Shown here: positions 209-17,998 of the stretch, piece after piece
Numbering within the stretch: position 1 is the first letter of the stretch
How the letters are laid out: the number at the start of each line of letters is the position of its first letter
UHGV virus genome: UHGV-0204798
DNA: 23,284 bases
Reading direction: 5' to 3' (one strand)
Source of the DNA: a virus
The notes under the pieces: model-generated
Told to the model about the DNA's origin: nothing
The model's input: the letters and a program-made list of their open reading frames with translations, nothing else
Database searches by the model: none
Program-made: the position numbers and the translations under genes

Positions 209-411
209 TATTCAACTGGCACAGTTGGAGAGACAGGCCTCTGCGCAGTTGTACCATATAACAAAGATGTCAACGGAGAAGTGCAGGCCGCAAACTGACT
301 GATGATGAAAAAACGCGGCTGAATGCGGTACTCGACTACATCGACGCAGTGACAGCAGTTGATGCTGACCCTGCGCCTGATATCAACTGGCCCGCTCCCC
401 CGGTTGCGTAG
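209..411 (+). pseudogene. Decayed tail fibre assembly (tfa-like) remnant, inverted relative to the intact tfa
   Basis: Plus-strand frame ending at TAG 409-411 translates to ...[39 protein letters not shown], which parallels the C-terminus of the minus-strand Tfa (...ATDDEQALL...[16 protein letters not shown]). An upstream frame-shifted segment (209-298) reads ...CAVVPYNKDVNGEVQAAN, resembling the Tfa N-terminus ([12 protein letters not shown]). No in-frame start and frames are broken. Confidence 0.4.
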
Positions 412-787
412 GCCACTCTATTTCGGGTGCCGCTGAGGTATCAACACGGTTCAGCAGTACCCTGTATTTTTTCCACGCCAGCAGTAACGCCTGTTCATCG
501 TCTGTCGCCATTTCCAAATCAACGGCATCCTGCAGCGGTGCTATTGTGTTATTTGCTACGGTCAGTAGTGCTGATTTCTGCAGCTCAGCCTCCGCAACTA
601 ACGCGTTGTGAGAGCGTTCTGGGGGAGGTGGCGCGGTAAATACTCCGTCTGAATATGACCAACCGATGCCAGCATCGCCGTTTAACGGAACTAAATTACC
701 AGCCTCTGGTTTCCATTCAGAAATTCCGTCCCAGATAATGACATTAATAACAACGTTATTATCAACAACTGCATAGACATCATTCAT
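383..787 (-). CDS. Tail fibre assembly protein (Tfa-like chaperone)
   Basis: 134-aa ORF with ATG at 785-787 directly after the TAA of the upstream fibre gene. C-terminal PEIEWP motif, as I recall for the Tfa family, and position immediately downstream of the tail fibre gene. Confidence 0.7.
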
Positions 788-1828
788 TTACATGTACTCC
801 CGAATTACCAGCACGCCATTTGCTCCGTGCCCGCCACGTCCTGACGTGTGTGAATAGCTATTATCGTATGCACCCCCGCCGCCGGAGCCAGAGCAAACTC
901 CAGGATTACCGATCAGTAGCCCAGCACGGCCGCCGCCACCCCAATAGCTCGATGCCCCATTGCCTGCTAATAGCGCCTGGCCCGCCTGTCCGTCTGAACC
1001 GTCTCCGCCTTGTTCAGTTTTATAACCGCCAGAGCCTGAGCCACCGCGCCCGCCAGCGGTATTTGTAGCGCCGCTCCATTGCCCACCCTGGCCGCCGAGC
1101 GCAATTAATGTCATGAACAAACTATTACCGCCATTATTTCCAGGCCCTGGCCCATTGGCACCACTACCACCGCTACCAATTGTCACTGTATAGGTCCCTG
1201 GCCCGGCATCGTTGTCTGTCGCATAAATAGTGGCAAAAACAGTACCTCCGGCTCCTCCGCCAGCCCCTGAAAATGTCTGATTTGCGTTCTCCGCGTTACA
1301 TCCACCGCCACCGCCGCCCGCCGCAGTCAGAATAACGTCAATTCGTTTTACGTCAGCTGGCCACGTATATAAACCCGACGATGAAAAAACGACAGTTTTG
1401 CTGTAACGCCCCGAGCCATCTCCCAAACCAAGGTATGAAAGAGCATCTTTCCACCCTGCACCATTGTTGTTAGGATCAAATAAATTTCCTTCTGTTGTAT
1501 TAATGAATATTCTCTCCCCATCGTCAGAGATGAGCATCGCCCCTGACGGATATCCAGAAATCTCCGAAGCAAACTCAGAATCAAAAGTGTTCAGCGCCCC
1601 TGTGCTCGACCATCTACCAAGAGCCGAAAGTTCGTATAAAATTTGGTTCATATCCTGGCCTTTTGGCGGCAAACCTCCAGCAGATTTCAGGATCATTGTT
1701 ATTGGAGGAAACCCCTGTTCATACGATGCTGAGTTATCACCTGCAGGGGTGGTTGGCAATATTGCCCCTCTCTGTCCATTAACTCCAAATGGCTTAGGTT
1801 GTTTTTTAGGTGAGTCAGAACGATTCAT
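788..1828 (-). CDS. Tail fibre protein with glycine-rich collagen-like repeats
   Basis: 346-aa ORF, ATG at 1826-1828 with AGGA about 9 nt upstream. Long Gly-rich tracts (GGGGGG, GSGGSGANGPGPGNNGG, GGRGGSGSGG). Located between baseplate genes and tfa. Confidence 0.6.
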   Translation of the reverse strand: MNRSDSPKKQPKPFGVNGQRGAILPTTPAGDNSASYEQGFPPITMILKSAGGLPPKGQDMNQILYELSALGRWSSTGALNTFDSEFASEISGYPSGAMLISDDGERIFINTTEGNLFDPNNNGAGWKDALSYLGLGDGSGRYSKTVVFSSSGLYTWPADVKRIDVILTAAGGGGGGCNAENANQTFSGAGGGAGGTVFATIYATDNDAGPGTYTVTIGSGGSGANGPGPGNNGGNSLFMTLIALGGQGGQWSGATNTAGGRGGSGSGGYKTEQGGDGSDGQAGQALLAGNGASSYWGGGGRAGLLIGNPGVCSGSGGGGAYDNSYSHTSGRGGHGANGVLVIREYM

Positions 1829-1830
1829 GC

Positions 1831-2469
1831 TTAATTCCTATAAAATGTGCCATCATTAAACGGATAGGCATCAGATGAAAAACCAAAATAAGGGGAAATG
1901 ATTTTACGTATATTTACCAGAACACCACTCGGGACGGGCATCACCTCATAATTCGTGAGAATCGATTCTTCGTATGTCGCAAGCTCAAATTCAAACGTTA
2001 TTCCTATTGTCATATCTCGATAATTTACGCAATATGCTCTCCCTCTTTGATAAAACAATATTTTTAGAAACCTGTTTATTTCAGGTATCGTGGCAATACT
2101 TATATTTGTGAATGCTTTGCAAAATATGAGAGTTCTGTAAGCATCATCACTCAACCTGACATTCGTTGTATCCTGTACACCACCAAAAAAAGGTGAATCG
2201 TTGAAAGGAGTTGGGTAATCTGGATCTTTGCCATCTGCTTCATTGAATCCGAAAGAACTGGATTCTATTGGAGCATTAATATAACGGCTTATTCCAACTA
2301 TTTTACCCCACATGTCCAACCCGAATGTCTCACAGGTGGTCAAATCCCATATTTTTTTAATAAACTCATCAGTGAAATCATCAAGGCTAATTGCCTGATT
2401 AAAGGTATCAATGATGGATAGTAATTTTTTGCTTGCAGAGTACTGGGTAAGAATTGTGTCTTCCCACAT
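1831..2469 (-). CDS. Tail/baseplate protein (fibre-attachment position, P2 gpI-like by synteny)
   Basis: 212-aa ORF tightly packed between the baseplate J-like gene and the tail fibre gene. Function inferred from gene order only. Confidence 0.4.
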   Translation of the reverse strand: MWEDTILTQYSASKKLLSIIDTFNQAISLDDFTDEFIKKIWDLTTCETFGLDMWGKIVGISRYINAPIESSSFGFNEADGKDPDYPTPFNDSPFFGGVQDTTNVRLSDDAYRTLIFCKAFTNISIATIPEINRFLKILFYQRGRAYCVNYRDMTIGITFEFELATYEESILTNYEVMPVPSGVLVNIRKIISPYFGFSSDAYPFNDGTFYRN

Positions 2470-2479
2470 ACCGCTCCCC

Positions 2480-3709
2480 CTACGACACTGTAACAGTAAT
2501 ATCTGATTCCTGAATGGTTGGAGCCTGGTCTATGCCCATAGTCACAGCAGGTCCGTATAGTGAACCATCGAGAGAAATTTCAAGAGACAAAATGCCAACT
2601 GTATCAGGAGATATTGAAATAACAGGGGCATAGTATTTACCAGCATTTATCGTAGAACCAATTCGTGCCTTTCCAATACCCTCATACCCTCCATTGAATA
2701 CAGTAGCAACCATTTTCTTTACTTGCTTAGTTATATCACTTGGTGGATTTAGTGAGGTATCGATATTTACCTTAAAGTAAACCCGCGTAGGTGATGCCTT
2801 TTGCCATTGCATAACGTAAGATGGATATGGCGGCATGTAATTAACGTTATCGTAAACAGTGAACGTTGTATCACCATTCATATTGGCCCCGGGGTTATAA
2901 GTATTGAATATTGACTCAGCAACATCCGTATCAGCCCCGCCATAAACACAAATATAAACAGAATGCGCAAGAATCTGGAAATTCGTTGTTCCTTTATTTA
3001 CTGTTTCTGCAGTTCTGTTTGACCATACGTAAGCATCAAGCACACCATCAGTCGCAAGTAACGCTGCTAATGTAGATGCGTCCTGATTTCGACTGTTTCT
3101 GGCAACTGATTGTCTCCGGCGAGTTTCAAAGGCGATACGTGATTCAACATCAACACCAACGACTCCAGGGCTAATATTATTTACAGCATCCCACCCCGAA
3201 ACGGCTCGATAAATCTGGTTCAGTGAACCGGCTGCACACGGAATTGGCCCGGTTGTTGTGTTGACAAACTGCACATCAACAGAGCCTGATGAGGGTATTA
3301 CGGCATTGTCAATTGACTGATATATATACCCGCTCGTATCCACAGCGGTACTCCCTGCTGGTATTGTTGTTCCAACCTGACCAATGCATGTTGCCGTAAC
3401 AACTGTCCCCTGAGCAGCGATCCGTTCCATAAAGTAAATCCGGCCAATCCCGTCCTGGAATCTGCCAGTTGAAAAGTCAGGGTTAATTTGATTAAACAAA
3501 CAAAGAAGCTTGTCGTATTCCTGAGCGATAATTTCAGTGTCAGACTGGGCGATCTGCCCTTGCGGTGAACTCAGTGATTGACTTGCACCACCACCAAGAG
3601 CAGTTGACATGTCTGTAAGTCTTCCCGCCAGCACATCCGCTATGTCGGGAACCGAAAGACCGTTTTCAGTGATGGTTACATCAGGAACAGCCGTATTTAA
3701 TATCGTCAT
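2480..3709 (-). CDS. Baseplate J-like protein
   Basis: 409-aa ORF; ATG at 3707-3709 overlaps the upstream stop (ATGA coupling). Size and position (after the small wedge protein, before fibre genes) fit the baseplate J family. Confidence 0.55.
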   Translation of the reverse strand: MTILNTAVPDVTITENGLSVPDIADVLAGRLTDMSTALGGGASQSLSSPQGQIAQSDTEIIAQEYDKLLCLFNQINPDFSTGRFQDGIGRIYFMERIAAQGTVVTATCIGQVGTTIPAGSTAVDTSGYIYQSIDNAVIPSSGSVDVQFVNTTTGPIPCAAGSLNQIYRAVSGWDAVNNISPGVVGVDVESRIAFETRRRQSVARNSRNQDASTLAALLATDGVLDAYVWSNRTAETVNKGTTNFQILAHSVYICVYGGADTDVAESIFNTYNPGANMNGDTTFTVYDNVNYMPPYPSYVMQWQKASPTRVYFKVNIDTSLNPPSDITKQVKKMVATVFNGGYEGIGKARIGSTINAGKYYAPVISISPDTVGILSLEISLDGSLYGPAVTMGIDQAPTIQESDITVTVS

Positions 3710-4065
3710 AAGGTGGCCTGTGCAATATTACCATTGATATCTGTAACGCGGATTGTGCCGCGAGTTGTGCGTGTATTCTTGTCAAAGAAAACTGATGCCA
3801 GAGCATCCTCAACGACAGGTAATTTGAGTGCTTCAGCCTGCATTTTCTGAGCAATAAAACCAGGAGATGGTCGCCTGCCAAGAACTTCTGCCTTCCATGG
3901 GATCCCAAGTGTATTGTCGTAATAACACTCTCCTGAAAACACCAGGCATGCACTGGCGACATCCTGAGCAACAGAATATGATTCTTCTGCGATCGCCAGA
4001 TTGCCATTTCCGTCAAGCATCAAGTCCCACGTAGAAGTGTCCAGTTGCATAGTTCTGTATGTCAT
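3706..4065 (-). CDS. Small baseplate wedge protein (gpW/GP46-like by position)
   Basis: 119-aa ORF translationally coupled to its neighbours on both sides. Assignment by size and synteny. Confidence 0.4.
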   Translation of the reverse strand: MTYRTMQLDTSTWDLMLDGNGNLAIAEESYSVAQDVASACLVFSGECYYDNTLGIPWKAEVLGRRPSPGFIAQKMQAEALKLPVVEDALASVFFDKNTRTTRGTIRVTDINGNIAQATL

Positions 4066-4754
4066 GTCGGTTTATCCGTTGCATTGGAATTTATTGTTGA
4101 CCCACCACTTTGTACTCCTGAAACAGAATGTTTGTGATTGTTATAGTTGTCCCTTAAATTTTTAACAGTAGATGACTGTGAACTTGCGTTATCCTGAATA
4201 TCGCCGCTAACTTTAAGTAAAGGTGTATTCATGTTGACTCCACCAGGAGCATCAATATTTAACGATGAACATTTAATATTTAGTGGATTAGGCGTGGTTA
4301 TGTTTATTGCACCATCAGCAAATTCAATGAATTGAGTAGGCGCAATGTTTAATACCCCACCAAGATAAATTGCATCAGATTTGCTGTGTCGTCTTTTGCT
4401 TCCAGGTACTGATTCTTTACGATTTTTTCTTACCAGTGATGTGTCTTTGTCGCAGACCGCAATCAGACCAATATCACCTGACACAGGGTCCATAATTACA
4501 GCACTGTTACCTCTCTGCAACCGCCATACGGGAAGATCATATAAAACTGAGTTAGAAATCATTTTTCCTGTACGGTCTGTTCTGGTAAGCAAAGGAAGAG
4601 CATCAACAACTAAATCTGGTGCCTCACCCCTGACTTCCTGAACTTTTGCTAACTCAATGAAGAAATATCCAGACATCAGCATCTCAAAAATATATTCCTG
4701 AGATTGAGCCTCACTTACCTGAGCAGGCGTTGGAGTAAATAGTTGCTTATCCAT
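4062..4754 (-). CDS. Baseplate central spike/hub protein (Gp138 N-domain-like)
   Basis: Track ORF 4062-4847 trimmed to the ATG at 4752-4754 (MDKQLFTPTP...), which lies just past the upstream stop at 4747-4749. Residues such as DLPVWRLQRGNSAVIMDPVSGDIGLIAV resemble spike N-terminal domains, recalled from memory. Confidence 0.45.
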   Translation of the reverse strand: MDKQLFTPTPAQVSEAQSQEYIFEMLMSGYFFIELAKVQEVRGEAPDLVVDALPLLTRTDRTGKMISNSVLYDLPVWRLQRGNSAVIMDPVSGDIGLIAVCDKDTSLVRKNRKESVPGSKRRHSKSDAIYLGGVLNIAPTQFIEFADGAINITTPNPLNIKCSSLNIDAPGGVNMNTPLLKVSGDIQDNASSQSSTVKNLRDNYNNHKHSVSGVQSGGSTINSNATDKPT

Positions 4755-5736
4755 TATTCTGTTGCACCTCTGATCTTTGTTCCGCTGTTCTGGCGGCAAT
4801 ACATATTGAGTGCCATGAACCATTTGGCATCCATGATGATAATTCATGCCGAACGGAGGTTAACTTATACCTTCCGCTTGCGTGTGGTAGTTCTGTTTTG
4901 ATATCCACATATCTTCCAATGCAAAGGAGAGATGAATATTGCGTCTGAAACATCAGTCCCCCATTTGAAAATACAGGATATCCAACAAGTCCGTATTCTC
5001 TGGATATAAACGGAATTACATCGTCTCTGTTTTTTTCTGAAGGCCAGAACTCTACTTTTGTCGGTGGCGTGGCTGACATCGCCAGTCCATAATCTGAACA
5101 GACCCTATAAAGTTGCTCAAAAACACTTCCTTCAAAATGCGGACTTCCTGATGTTGTCATCCCTTTTACATTATTAAACACAGCCTCATAACCTGCACTT
5201 GCACAAATGTATGAGATGACATCTTCAACACTTTGCGCACCCTGTGCTGTAAACGGGCTTGCTGGCATGTTCTGTAAATCAACATTAGAAGAGGCTGTTA
5301 TCATCAGACTGCTTTCAGGAGCAGAATTCATGTTTGCTATTGATGAAAGCATCGTGCCGGAGAAAACAAGAGAATCATCAGCAAATACCTCAACATTTAA
5401 CTTCTGACCTTCCCCAACAATACCATCAGCCTTCCCTGATATATCAGCAAGTCTTTCAATTCCTAACCCGTAAAGAGATATATCAGCCTGAGCACCTCCC
5501 CGACCGGTAACAAAGTTCAGGGATACTGTTGACTTAACATTTCTGATGGAGATTTTATTGTTTCCATTTTTATCAAATGCTGATGATTCATTCGTGAAGT
5601 CAAACCGAAGACTGTGATTTTTATACAAGCTCGTTTTCCTCGATGTAGTACAGCAAGTAACGGCTACCCAAGCCTTCCCATTGCGGGTCCGATTCCCCAT
5701 CATTATCAATGAAAATAAGGTCTCCCTTAAATCCAA
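4747..5736 (-). CDS. Tail/baseplate structural protein; start uncertain
   Basis: 329-aa track ORF. Its 5' end overlaps the upstream 100-aa ORF by about 116 nt, so the real start is probably internal (for example TTG at 5626-5628). Confidence 0.45.
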   Translation of the reverse strand: MDLRETLFSLIMMGNRTRNGKAWVAVTCCTTSRKTSLYKNHSLRFDFTNESSAFDKNGNNKISIRNVKSTVSLNFVTGRGGAQADISLYGLGIERLADISGKADGIVGEGQKLNVEVFADDSLVFSGTMLSSIANMNSAPESSLMITASSNVDLQNMPASPFTAQGAQSVEDVISYICASAGYEAVFNNVKGMTTSGSPHFEGSVFEQLYRVCSDYGLAMSATPPTKVEFWPSEKNRDDVIPFISREYGLVGYPVFSNGGLMFQTQYSSLLCIGRYVDIKTELPHASGRYKLTSVRHELSSWMPNGSWHSICIAARTAEQRSEVQQNNG

Positions 5737-5923
5737 GGTAGGAATATCTTACCATCTTATTCCCATACAGACATGGAACGCCCTGCATAATTGGGACTTC
5801 ATTAACAGTTAAATCCATGTACATAAAACTCTGTCGCTGAACAAGTTTTATATTACATTGCTGACCAGCCAGACTTACCGAAATGGACTGAGATTTGCTG
5901 GGAAGAACAGATACTGTAATCAT
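5621..5923 (-). CDS. Small tail structural protein
   Basis: 100-aa ORF with ATG at 5921-5923 overlapping the upstream stop. Confidence 0.4.
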   Translation of the reverse strand: MITVSVLPSKSQSISVSLAGQQCNIKLVQRQSFMYMDLTVNEVPIMQGVPCLYGNKMVRYSYLGFKGDLIFIDNDGESDPQWEGLGSRYLLYYIEENELV

Positions 5924-6735
5924 GTACTCGCCTTAACTATATTTTTTGCAATATCTGCCGCTTTTTTTGTTGCGCTGTTTGTAACTTCGAGTATTGGTTT
6001 AGACACCGTATCAAGAGCACTCTGAAATTCAGTCTTTATTGTGCCGGAGATTTTTCCAGTGATTTCGCCAACAGATGACTTCAGTGATGACCATGATTTA
6101 CTTAGCTCATCGACAGTAGATTCCCTGGCTCCGCCATTGGTTATTTGCGGATCAACTCCTACATCACCCTGTGACTTATTGTTATCCGTTGGCTTCTGTT
6201 CTGACTGAGATCCAGAGAGAATAACTTCCATTTGCTGAATGACCTCCTGAAAATCAAGATAAACCGTCAGAAGAGTCACCCCTTTTTGAGAGTTAACTTC
6301 GTAATAGTGGTCAACAAGGTCGAAACTCTCCAGAGTTTCCTTTGGCGTTTCAATATCGTATGTTTTTGCAGAGGACAGCATCGTTTTGATTGTGTTCAGC
6401 GTGCTGTTCTGGCTTGTGAATGTGAGATCGAAAATATTCGGGATATTGCCGGAAAAACCAGTAAGACCATTTACGATGATTGCGCATCTTACCCTGGCGG
6501 GTTCTTTAACTTTGTTGATGGACTGGTATTTCCCTTTCTCCACCGGAGCGTTTGTTATTTGCGCCCTGCCACTTGGCTGCACGGATGCCATACCACTGAA
6601 CTCAAGAGCAACCTCGCCAGTTTCCCTGTCACGAATCACATACTGGGGATGCAGAACGCTGTCGATAATCGAAAGCGGAGAGCCGCCACCGATAGCATTG
6701 AATATGTCTGCTGTGTTTAAATCGATTATGCCCAT
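5920..6735 (-). CDS. Tail structural protein, first gene downstream of the regulatory island
   Basis: 271-aa ORF with ATG at 6733-6735 and a GGAG Shine-Dalgarno 5 nt upstream. No enzymatic motif recognised. Confidence 0.45.
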   Translation of the reverse strand: MGIIDLNTADIFNAIGGGSPLSIIDSVLHPQYVIRDRETGEVALEFSGMASVQPSGRAQITNAPVEKGKYQSINKVKEPARVRCAIIVNGLTGFSGNIPNIFDLTFTSQNSTLNTIKTMLSSAKTYDIETPKETLESFDLVDHYYEVNSQKGVTLLTVYLDFQEVIQQMEVILSGSQSEQKPTDNNKSQGDVGVDPQITNGGARESTVDELSKSWSSLKSSVGEITGKISGTIKTEFQSALDTVSKPILEVTNSATKKAADIAKNIVKAST

Positions 6736-6750
6736 CTACTCTCCATTAAA

Positions 6751-6774
6751 CAAAAAACCCAGCCGAAGCTGGGT
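6751..6774 (-). terminator. Intrinsic terminator downstream of ant
   Basis: Hairpin ACCCAGC-CGAA-GCTGGGT (6757-6763 / 6768-6774) followed on the minus strand by a TTTTTTG run (plus 6751-6756 is CAAAAA). Sits about 20 nt after the ant stop and just upstream of the next gene's RBS. Confidence 0.6.
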
Positions 6775-6792
6775 CGTTGCGTTGGTTATCTG

Positions 6793-7719
6793 TCAGTAGT
6801 TATGTACTGAAGGAGGTAATTCTTTATTCTTAAGTCTCATCCATGCGGAAAGATTCGTTGGTCCGTCTGGCTCATTGATATCAACATCTCGTGTGTGGTT
6901 TATTAAAACGTCTCTCGCCATTCCGATAACATACGAGAATTCATGACCGTAGTCGTAGCATCTGCCGGAATAGTTCGATTGAATTTGTTTTAGCGCCGGA
7001 TACAGTTCGCGGAATAATGCCTGTGAACGGTTGGCATAATCCCATAACCATACAAGGCTGTTTGCTTCTTTTGCAGAAAGCTCGTTTGCTTTCTTCTCTT
7101 GTTTGCCGATGAACTCACCTTCAAGCGGAACTCGAGCTGCAAGTGACAGTGCTTCGGTAAACTGCTCCTCACTGATTTCTTTGTATGAACATCCAAAATG
7201 GGATTTCAGTGACGACCACATGGTAATCATCGCCTTCGCCTGTTTTTCTTTTGGCAGAGACTGACCGCGACTCATGACAAGTTGTTTAATGGCTTCCTGC
7301 TGTTCAGTGGTGATTTTGCCCGGCAACGCCTTTTTAGCTTTGCGTGGATTAACCACATGGCCTTTAGTCCAGTACTCATAGAGCACATCGTCACACTCTT
7401 CCTGATACTGGATTACCTTGTCGCGGATTTCAGGGCGGACTTTGTTAGGACTGATGGTTTGCAGCCAGCCAGCAAGTTTGCGAAGTGCCAAACAAATAAT
7501 CTCACGGCACTGTTCATCACCAGGAAGCTGCATTGTGATTTTCACAATGGAGGTTTTAAACCGTTGCTTTATTTTCGTAAACTGTGAAGCCCAATCCATA
7601 CCCATTCCCTCAACGATAGGTTTCATTGGGGTGTACGGTTCGCCGTTGTGATTGACAACATAAAGCTCTGCGCCGTGAAATGGCACGTTGATAGTAGATA
7701 CCGCGGTTGCTATACTCAT
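6793..7719 (-). CDS. ant: Phage antirepressor (Ant-like)
   Basis: Track ORF 6793-7773 starts with GTG; the likely start is ATG at 7717-7719 (MSIATAVSTINVPFHGAELYVV...) with AAGGA 9 nt upstream. N-terminal NVPFxGxELYVV...HNGEPYTPMKPIVEGMGMDW block recalled as typical of enterobacterial phage antirepressors. Lies directly downstream of an Arc-like gene and divergent from an Mnt-like gene. Confidence 0.65.
   Translation of the reverse strand: MSIATAVSTINVPFHGAELYVVNHNGEPYTPMKPIVEGMGMDWASQFTKIKQRFKTSIVKITMQLPGDEQCREIICLALRKLAGWLQTISPNKVRPEIRDKVIQYQEECDDVLYEYWTKGHVVNPRKAKKALPGKITTEQQEAIKQLVMSRGQSLPKEKQAKAMITMWSSLKSHFGCSYKEISEEQFTEALSLAARVPLEGEFIGKQEKKANELSAKEANSLVWLWDYANRSQALFRELYPALKQIQSNYSGRCYDYGHEFSYVIGMARDVLINHTRDVDINEPDGPTNLSAWMRLKNKELPPSVHNY
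7688..7716 (+). promoter_or_regulatory. Candidate sigma70 promoter firing antisense to ant (Psar-like)
   Basis: TTGATA (7688-7693), 17-nt spacer, TATACT (7711-7716). The -10 element overlaps the ant start codon on the opposite strand. Confidence 0.4.
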
Positions 7720-7722
7720 TTC

Positions 7723-7793
7723 GTTAGTTCCTTGGAAGTTACTGACATAGAAGCCCGATTTGTGTTCGCGCACTGTCGGGCTTCGCTATTTTT
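7723..7793 (+). ncRNA. Candidate ~70-nt antisense RNA covering the ant RBS (sar-like)
   Basis: Predicted start about 7 nt after the -10 element. Ends at a 9-bp hairpin GAAGCCCGA/TCGGGCTTC (7750-7758 / 7776-7784, 17-nt loop) followed by GCTATTTTT (T run 7789-7793). Complementary to the ant Shine-Dalgarno (plus 7729-7733) and the arc-ant intergenic region. Confidence 0.4.
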
Positions 7794-7959
7794 ATGTCCT
7801 AGCATTCTTCTCTCCAATCAGTCCGTACACTTTTCTCAATTGATAAACAAGTTCCGTGTTGAACTGTCGACACTCTTTTTCTCCATTTCTTTCAATCGCC
7901 TTCCTTACATCCTCTGGGAAACGAACCTTGCGTTGATACATGTCTTTTGCTTTTTCCAT
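7792..7959 (-). CDS. arc: Arc-like ribbon-helix-helix DNA-binding protein (55 aa), not in the ORF track
   Basis: Codon-by-codon reading of the minus strand from ATG (plus 7957-7959) to TAA (plus 7792-7794) gives MEKAKDMYQRKVRFPEDVRKAIERNGEKECRQFNTELVYQLRKVYGLIGEKNART. AAGGAG Shine-Dalgarno 5 nt upstream. Beta-strand (KVRFP) then two helices, the RHH pattern of P22 Arc. Sits immediately upstream of ant. Confidence 0.6.
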   Translation of the reverse strand: MEKAKDMYQRKVRFPEDVRKAIERNGEKECRQFNTELVYQLRKVYGLIGEKNART

Positions 7960-7976
7960 CTCCACTCCTTAAATAG

Positions 7977-7989
7977 CCTCACTGTGGGG
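7977..7989. promoter_or_regulatory. Operator-like imperfect palindrome CCTCACtGTGGGG
   Basis: 11 of 13 positions symmetric. Lies in the 5' leader of the leftward arc-ant transcript, between the -10 element and the arc Shine-Dalgarno. Confidence 0.45.
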
Positions 7990-7997
7990 TAGTCAAA

Positions 7998-8026
7998 ATT
8001 GTCACACCGTGCGTCATTGAAGTCAA
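7998..8026 (-). promoter_or_regulatory. Candidate leftward promoter for arc-ant (Pant-like)
   Basis: Minus strand reads TTGACT (plus 8021-8026), 17-nt spacer, TGn-GACAAT (plus 7998-8003). Its -35 overlaps the -35 of the divergent rightward promoter. Confidence 0.45.
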
Positions 8027-17863: not shown

Positions 17864-17884
17864 GCTTTTACCTTTCGGCAGGCA

Positions 17885-17907
17885 ATAAAAAAAGCCGCAG
17901 TAGCGGC
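17885..17907 (-). terminator. Terminator-like hairpin inside the head operon
   Basis: 5-bp GC stem GCCGC/GCGGC (17894-17898 / 17903-17907) with loop AGTA, followed on the minus strand by a run of seven or more T (plus 17885-17893 AATAAAAAAA). Lies in the 135-bp gap between the MuF-like and scaffold genes. Confidence 0.35.
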
Positions 17908-17998
17908 CATTATTTCCTCTTGGGCATAGCTATTTTCAGTAGTGCAATCATTAAGCAACCAAAAATCAACACTAAGCCCAGAGACCATAAAACCTCAA

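Follow-up and report, generated by a model that had tools for sequence, protein, structure and literature searches.

How are the baseplate and tail-fibre genes of a phage transcribed when a terminator stands directly in front of the first of them and no promoter can be seen in between? This question is raised by a stretch of 23,284 nucleotides from the virus genome UHGV-0204798, hereafter the window, in which all virion open reading frames lie on the minus strand. The features around the junction are as follows, in the order in which a minus-strand transcript would meet them.

8525..10339, minus strand: tape-measure-like (TMP) 'lytic tail protein' with an SLT domain, the last tail gene before the island (Pfam SLT 2e-20; phrog_2013 2e-191)
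6793..7719, minus strand: ant antirepressor gene, 308 aa from the ATG at 7719 (Pfam P22_AR_N 8e-45 and P22_AR_C 3e-29; phrog_245 1e-96)
6756..6775, minus strand: terminator stem-loop, GACCCAGC-TTCG-GCTGGGTT, with its arms at 6775-6768 (GACCCAGC) and 6763-6756 (GCTGGGTT) and its loop TTCG at 6767-6764; identical to P22 t_ant (NC_002371.2 16012-16035)
6746..6757, minus strand: T-tract of the terminator, TTTTTTGTTT; homology to the ant modules of P22-like and Stx phages stops here (megablast matches begin at 6752/6753)
6733..6744, minus strand: Shine-Dalgarno sequence GGAG (6744-6741) and ATG (6735-6733) of the first baseplate gene
5920..6735, minus strand: Dit-like baseplate gene, the first after the island (phrog_1830, E = 5e-74; weak match to Pfam Dit_like)
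383..5923, minus strand: tightly packed baseplate and tail-fibre genes, among them plug (5621-5923) and hub (4747-5700) (Pfam, PHROGs and annotation of relatives)

The ant stop codon TGA occupies 6795-6793, and the hairpin begins 17 nt past it on the same strand. Its 8-bp stem contains five G-C pairs, is closed by a UUCG loop and is followed by UUUUUUGUUU, the make-up of an intrinsic terminator. On the minus strand the T-run reads TTTTTT (6757-6752), G, TTT (6750-6748); in the reverse orientation the hairpin has no T-tract. Taken by itself the hairpin folds with a dG of -14.1 kcal/mol, and folding of its 68-nt context gave z = -3.06 against shuffles. In a terminator scan, one terminator-like site in 4500-10500 scored higher than that at 6775, which came second, and a strict scan of the coding strand of the full 23-kb window returned four sites only (17908, 16452, 8467, and 6775). 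The first of these (17908..17893) is intergenic and the second is weak and intragenic. A preliminary description of this DNA had placed the hairpin and T run at 6751-6774, about 20 nt before the next tail gene; the minus-strand sequence and the terminator scan agree with these positions within 1-2 nt, and the distance from the stem end to the Dit ATG is 20 nt. The gap between the T-tract and the Shine-Dalgarno sequence is approximately 7 nt.

The absence of a convincing sigma70 promoter before the next tail gene, also claimed in that description, was borne out by standard as well as relaxed scans. Between 7998 and 4863 the minus strand held no sigma-70-like site, and a relaxed scan of 7000..6700 (at least 8 of 12 matches) gave nothing able to yield a transcript that contains the Dit start. 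Over the whole late region, promoter-like matches were at or below shuffle expectation. An independent Dit promoter was rejected after these scans. The genes at 383..5923 would depend on the same transcript as Dit.

Comparison with P22 revealed the origin of the hairpin. Over 48 nt, from the 3' end of ant through the T-run and including the hairpin and the 30 nt that precede it, the window is identical to P22, whose record NC_002371.2 annotates ACCCAGCTTCGGCTGGGTTTTTTT as the ant terminator. The same hairpin is found in the P22-like phage CUS-3, where the annotation calls the region a 'boundary sequence', and in the Stx phage phi330, and similarity to the window ceases right after the T-run. 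The ant gene of the window shares 90-93% DNA identity with ant of CUS-3/P22-like and Stx phages. As an exact 22-mer the hairpin occurs in at least 120 viral-contig stretches; 80 of these were examined, with ant located upstream in 57 and about ten or more distinct contexts located downstream. The same hairpin moves with ant into unrelated backbones. We predict that the 6775..6746 element is the intrinsic terminator of a P22-type ant gene and forms the 3' end of a mobile immI cassette, and it is better described as the end of such a cassette than as a feature peculiar to this phage.

The remaining signals and genes between the TMP gene and ant are the following.

8444..8467, both strands: bidirectional terminator, AAAACCCACC-GTCA-GGTGGGTTTT followed by TTGTTG in the direction of the late transcript (dG -17.1 kcal/mol)
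8082..8456, plus strand: mnt-like Arc-family repressor gene, directed against the late operon (Pfam Arc 4e-07; PHROGs)
7998..8045, both strands: overlapping divergent promoter-like sites, Pant-like at 8026..7998 (minus) and Pmnt-like at 8017-8045 (plus), in the layout of the P22 annotation (9/12 matches each, by consensus matching only)
7792..7959, minus strand: arc-like ribbon-helix-helix repressor gene, 55 aa (phrog_228, Arc-like repressor, 5e-06; the match is weak and the protein short)
7750..7784, plus strand: hairpin in the arc-ant spacer, placed like the terminator of the P22 sar antisense RNA in a side-by-side comparison with P22
7688..7716, plus strand: promoter-like site TTGATA-17-TATACT with TG in the 5' end of ant (10/12 matches), placed like P22 Psar

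The arc-like gene lies directly 5' of ant on the same strand, as in P22 immI. Gene set and order agree throughout: a divergent mnt, overlapping Pant and Pmnt, arc, a sar-like spacer, ant, and the terminator. A search with Rfam in E-value mode (6600-8600) gave chance-level matches only, none at E ≤1, and sar was absent; the sar-like RNA is therefore a candidate by position and shape only. At the Rfam gathering threshold, the whole window gave STnc490 at its far-left end and nothing at the terminator or in the island. The island, with its mnt-like, arc-like, and ant genes, is to all appearances a P22 immI copy that has entered between the TMP gene and the baseplate genes. The insert between TMP and Dit measures 1789 nt in the window, and the two genes are adjacent in seven relatives, as is seen with morons.

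The position of the cassette is shared as well. In P22, immI and the ant terminator sit between gene 16 and the tailspike gene 9 in the late operon, and in both phages the cassette is located inside the late operon, directly 5' of an essential tail gene, where transcripts from the late promoter must cross it. The window phage differs from P22 in being contractile-tailed, with the slot between a tape-measure-like gene and baseplate genes, and in the divergent alleles of its mnt-like and arc-like genes. The distance to the next gene is approximately 170 nt before gene 9 in P22 and 20 nt from stem to ATG in the window. A further difference is the second, bidirectional terminator that closes the upstream end of the window island. 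This terminator at 8467..8444 lies 58 nt past the tape-measure stop codon. It closes the plus-strand mnt gene, and it is predicted to be strong also for late minus-strand transcripts. Both the second island terminator and the P22 immI parallel had been proposed in the preliminary description. The former is present and sense-oriented for late transcripts too, and the latter is confirmed by a terminator sequence-identical to P22 t_ant, an identity that makes the parallel one of homology and not merely of analogy.

Relatives supply what the window does not contain. A megablast search of the whole window against isolated phages found nothing close to the tail module. By protein search, the nearest isolated phages are Edwardsiella phages GF-2 and Edno5 (genus Gofduovirus), whose Dit protein is 66% identical. 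They share with the window the order of lytic tail protein (TMP), mnt-like gene, arc, ant, terminator, and Dit, and they carry lambda-like regulators, with a Q-like protein annotated in Edno5. They differ from it in host genus, in their ant alleles, and in their terminator stems (CCCGC or CCTCGC, not CCCAGC). Edno5 forms complete contractile-tailed (myovirus) virions, and its P22-like second regulatory region has already been noted (PMC6372524). Since Edno5 combines the same layout with complete virions, a functional phage evidently expresses the genes that lie past such a terminator.

Related E. coli prophages are, unlike GF-2 and Edno5, integrated alongside a tRNA-Arg gene beside yfdC and carry IntS. 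A complete relative at this site contains CI/Cro/CII, nin genes, an 'antiterminator Q family protein', lysis genes, and then the virion genes. In three relatives (L011, TW10590, and Edno5), a TTGACA promoter and then a strong tR'-like terminator come downstream of the Q gene. One of the three has ATTGAGCAAATGAGCA in the spacer, corresponding to the phage-21 Q-binding repeats as quoted in PMC8022706. The tR'-like hairpin of L011 has a 17-nt loop and was missed by the scan; it was found by direct reading of the sequence, together with the promoter and the Q-binding repeats. The order of Q, promoter, and terminator before the lysis and virion genes in these relatives is that of the lambda-type late operon (pR', qut/QBE, tR'). 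The window itself shows further traits of such an operon, with virion genes on one strand, tightly packed, and without internal promoters, whereas its Q would lie beyond the right end and is known from relatives only. Since Q and the late promoter are located outside the window and the early regions of lambda-like phages are mosaic, the Q of this phage is extrapolated from the three relatives.

We hypothesize that the terminator closes the cassette's own transcription and that the tail genes downstream are read by a Q-modified late polymerase, and we assign this reading a probability of roughly 0.8. The main job of the hairpin would be to stop polymerases started at the Pant of the cassette, so that Pant transcription in the lysogen or in early infection would be kept out of the baseplate and fibre genes. 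The latter would be transcribed from a single late promoter approximately 19 kb upstream, by a polymerase that the phage Q would make terminator-resistant and that would read through 17908, 8467, and 6775. From sequence we infer that at least three terminators have to be crossed, how strong they are, how efficiently they terminate, and that read-through is Q-dependent. The tail genes behind the hairpin probably depend on terminator-resistant late transcription, which is an ordinary arrangement in lambda-like phages. Read-through of both island terminators by antiterminated late transcription, as the preliminary description had proposed, is supported in silico by the terminators themselves, the lack of a promoter, the Q genes of relatives, and Edno5.

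In the E. coli prophages the tail module is 96-99% identical and the content of the TMP-Dit junction varies, including ant/arc/mnt variants and P63C, Panacea, LexA-like, HTH, and DUF2513 genes. All ten E. coli relatives (10/10), each with different cargo, have a hairpin and T-run followed by the invariant TTTGTTTAATGGAGAGTAGATG, and at the 5' foot of the hairpin their sequences cease to be identical. An IMG/VR scan with the Dit protein yielded 79 loci (41-100% identical), and the TMP-Dit gap was measurable in 74. A terminator was present in 0/7 insert-free loci, where the TMP stop codon overlaps or abuts the Dit ATG; this arrangement implies that the two genes form one operon. Where the gap was at least 71 nt, a hairpin and T-run were present in 61/66 loci, ending 15-22 nt before the Dit ATG.

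The junction terminator accompanied 39/39 islands with a sense Dit-proximal open reading frame and 5/10 with an antisense one (Fisher p = 1.3e-4, a value that overstates significance since the loci are related and not phylogenetically independent). Sense-strand terminators were eight times denser in islands (0.68 per kb) than in the backbone flanks (0.083 per kb). The stems were of the types CCCGC/GCGGG, CCCAGC/GCTGGG, CCCACC/GGTGGG, CCTCGC/GCGGGG, CCCAC/GTGGG, and GCTCAC/GTGGGC. All six inner pairs were intact in every one of 31 distinct tetraloop hairpins, and three pairs had changed on both sides. The covariation score was 0.31, compared to 0.107 in shuffles (0/500 reached 0.31) and at most 0.068 in slid controls, with the shuffle control likewise overstating significance for loci that share ancestry.

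The cargo was diverse, with 72 cargo clusters in 52 islands, and included a YafO toxin, a Panacea antitoxin, an Mrr-like nuclease, LexA-like repressors, and several antirepressor types. Small islands of 237-294 nt consist of a single open reading frame of approximately 58-68 aa, a promoter-like -10 element, and a terminator, in what appears to be the textbook layout of a moron. On reading its sequence, the encoded product looks like a two-pass membrane protein. The closest described counterparts are morons in general (Juhala et al. 2000, as cited in PMC2629481) and, above all, the 'ant moron' known from P22-like phages (Villafane et al. 2008, PMC2629481), for which ten moron types were reported in sixteen genomes. 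Both the P22-like slot and the present one are hypervariable cargo slots at a fixed position in a syntenic virion cluster, empty in some relatives and often filled by ant/arc/mnt. In both, the cargo has transcription signals of its own at its borders, with the promoters here being putative ones. The family studied here differs in morphotype and in the flanking gene pair. In this family (approximately 66 loci) a terminator tied to cargo orientation and a fixed distance of 15-22 nt to the next start codon are documented.

The survey also bears on other explanations of the hairpin. The terminator could chiefly be a partial attenuator of late transcripts, acting even on Q-modified polymerase, so that less baseplate and fibre protein would be made per sheath, tube, and tape-measure protein. 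According to PMC2629481, the P22 ant moron affects how often polymerase from the late promoter reaches the tailspike gene, and the phage L paper lists partial termination among the possible roles of terminators inside the late operon. One locus (L082) has the terminator and no cargo, and five islands with antisense-only or degenerate cargo keep the sense terminator, so insulation of cargo cannot be the whole story; such terminators could be remnants, or late transcripts could be attenuated by the hairpin as well. However, all seven insert-free relatives have the same tail module, with its genes overlapping or abutting and without the terminator, which implies that attenuation is not needed for tail assembly. 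The dependence of the terminator on cargo orientation and the movement of the identical hairpin with ant into unrelated backbones also argue against attenuation as the chief role. We consider that role unlikely, and attenuation as an additional effect of the terminator possible.

A second explanation is that the hairpins are kept mainly as recombination joints for cassette swaps, 'boundary sequences' in the sense of the CUS-3 annotation, with termination being incidental. Homology blocks shared by the window and one relative (L012) end just past the T-runs, at 8439 and 6752, and this relative has the 23-nt hairpin twice, around an 871-nt cassette that is absent from the window. The wide spread of the 22-mer and its many downstream contexts point in the same direction. 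On the other hand, the stems vary by lineage and yet pair, and the T-run is always kept in the sense orientation, which indicates selection on RNA structure and termination and not on DNA identity. The presence of the hairpin depends on cargo orientation, and a role as joint does not exclude a role as terminator. As the main reason for keeping the hairpins, recombination is very improbable; the data support it as a second property alongside termination and not as a replacement.

A combined possibility, which we put forward tentatively and hold to be somewhat less than an even bet, is that the hairpins are dual, stopping cargo transcription and serving as the actual crossover points by which cassettes move between unrelated phage types, here P22-like podoviruses, Stx phages, and Gofduovirus-like myoviruses. 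If so, the TMP/baseplate junction would be where phages exchange cargo of the anti-repressor, toxin-antitoxin, and restriction types, and the T-run together with the ribosome-binding site of the next gene would be its fixed docking edge.

The last explanation, that a hidden promoter, within the 3' end of ant or at the junction, serves the baseplate genes and makes read-through unnecessary, has nothing positive in its favour beyond the weak 8/12 matches of the relaxed scan and can be set aside almost entirely, as the approximately 7 nt between T-tract and Shine-Dalgarno sequence leave little room, the best relaxed matches would start RNA inside Dit or far 5' of the terminator, RNA begun upstream would still run into the terminator, and the cargo 5' of the hairpin is wholly different among relatives whose downstream genes are constant, so that a promoter in the cargo could not be a conserved solution.

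Under the preferred reading, closure of the cassette by its own terminator and read-through by Q-modified polymerase, an essential tail operon could hold accessory genes midway and still stay coupled. The terminator of each cassette would keep cargo transcription off the structural genes, and the phage would tolerate that terminator since its late transcription resists termination. In annotation, a strong terminator among prophage tail genes should not be taken for the end of an operon or for a sign of decay. The P22 ant terminator, to which the element corresponds, was already known, and an 'ant moron' in a Q-dependent late operon has been described for P22-like phages (PMC2629481); the ant-terminator case as such opens no long-standing question. 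What is new is the context (a contractile-tailed, lambda-like lineage and a TMP/baseplate slot), the size of the hot spot, and the link between terminator and cargo orientation in numbers. The junction is a second hot spot of the 'ant moron' type, with antirepressors, toxin-antitoxin genes, and a restriction-like nuclease, and as such it is useful to the mining of prophages for immunity and defence cargo.

A candidate interpretation of the junction hairpin as the end of a mobile element or an att site was dropped, as the islands are without integrase or transposase and their cargo is heterogeneous. In base composition, considered as a sign of foreign origin, only the mnt-like part of the window island has a lower G+C content (0.36-0.40 vs. 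0.42-0.47), and the ant part is at the level of the backbone.

Across the relatives, the slot that follows the tape-measure-like gene and precedes Dit, the first baseplate gene, carries highly varied cargo, which in the islands of the related viral loci L012-L088 comprises the following:

Toxin-antitoxin type: YafO toxin; SocA/Panacea antitoxin
Nuclease: Mrr-like restriction nuclease
Repressors: LexA-like S24
Antirepressors and others: P63C, Rha, ORF6N and Bro-N antirepressors
HNH-Ant fusion, 564 aa
Small membrane proteins; secreted proteins

Many Klebsiella-type relatives have islands of 237-294 nt, the sole cargo of which is a conserved ORF encoding about 58-68 aa (MRSNLLYLFIYTLTF...HIIHFWPTK) with a -10-like element upstream. 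Mini-islands were located at about 5700-6000 in L034, L036, L040, L042, and L049. Judged from its sequence, the product of the ORF is apparently a two-pass membrane protein.

Terminators were also found without cargo, or in duplicate. In the related locus L082 (5929-6001) the tape-measure-like gene and Dit are separated by just 71 nt, and this gap contains a terminator (AACCCGC-TTTAT-GCGGGTT followed by T7) and no cargo ORF. Either the L082 terminator is what remains of a lost cassette, or it stands alone within the operon. Locus L012 harbors two copies of the ant-terminator hairpin (5091-5113 and 5962-5984), corresponding to 6774-6752 in the window. These copies flank an additional cassette of 871 nt that the window lacks, and the duplication is consistent with gain or loss of a cassette by recombination between hairpin copies.

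Within the immI-like island of the window, a candidate sar-like antisense RNA was noted on the plus strand at 7688-7784, with two elements:

Within 7688-7784, plus strand: promoter-like site (TTGATA-17-TATACT, with TG) located within the 5' end of ant
Within 7688-7784, plus strand: hairpin GAAGCCCGA...TCGGGCTTC and its T-rich tail, in the spacer between arc and ant

Both occupy positions equivalent to those in P22 sar, the antisense RNA across the ant ribosome-binding site. Rfam gave no match for the candidate RNA at 7688-7784.

The late operon of the window contains another small insert, which encodes a hydrophobic ORF of 30 aa followed by a terminator:

17864-17998, minus strand: second small insert, separating the minor head protein gene from the head gene that follows
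17908..17893, minus strand: terminator GGCCGC-TACT-GCGGCT followed by T7, 3' of the 30-aa ORF

The sequence after this terminator, TTTTTTTATTGCCTG...ATG, is similar to the pre-Dit junction of the Klebsiella-type relatives, TTTTTTATTGCCTGGAG.

In two E. coli relatives a TTGACA promoter region (L011, 15340-15440; L093, 7565-7660) lies downstream of the gene for the late antiterminator Q. Its spacer contains tandem 8-mers, ATTGAGCA/AATGAGCA in one relative and AATTAGCC/ATTTAGCC in the other, which resemble the elements to which Q binds in phages 21 and L. In both loci the promoter is followed by a hairpin (9-bp stem, 17-nt loop) and a T-run; the tool scan overlooked this hairpin.

STnc490 is an Hfq-binding sRNA. 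An Rfam match to STnc490 (85.9 bits, gathering score 56) was found on the minus strand at 1-87, downstream of the tail-fibre genes, where the left edge of the window truncates it.
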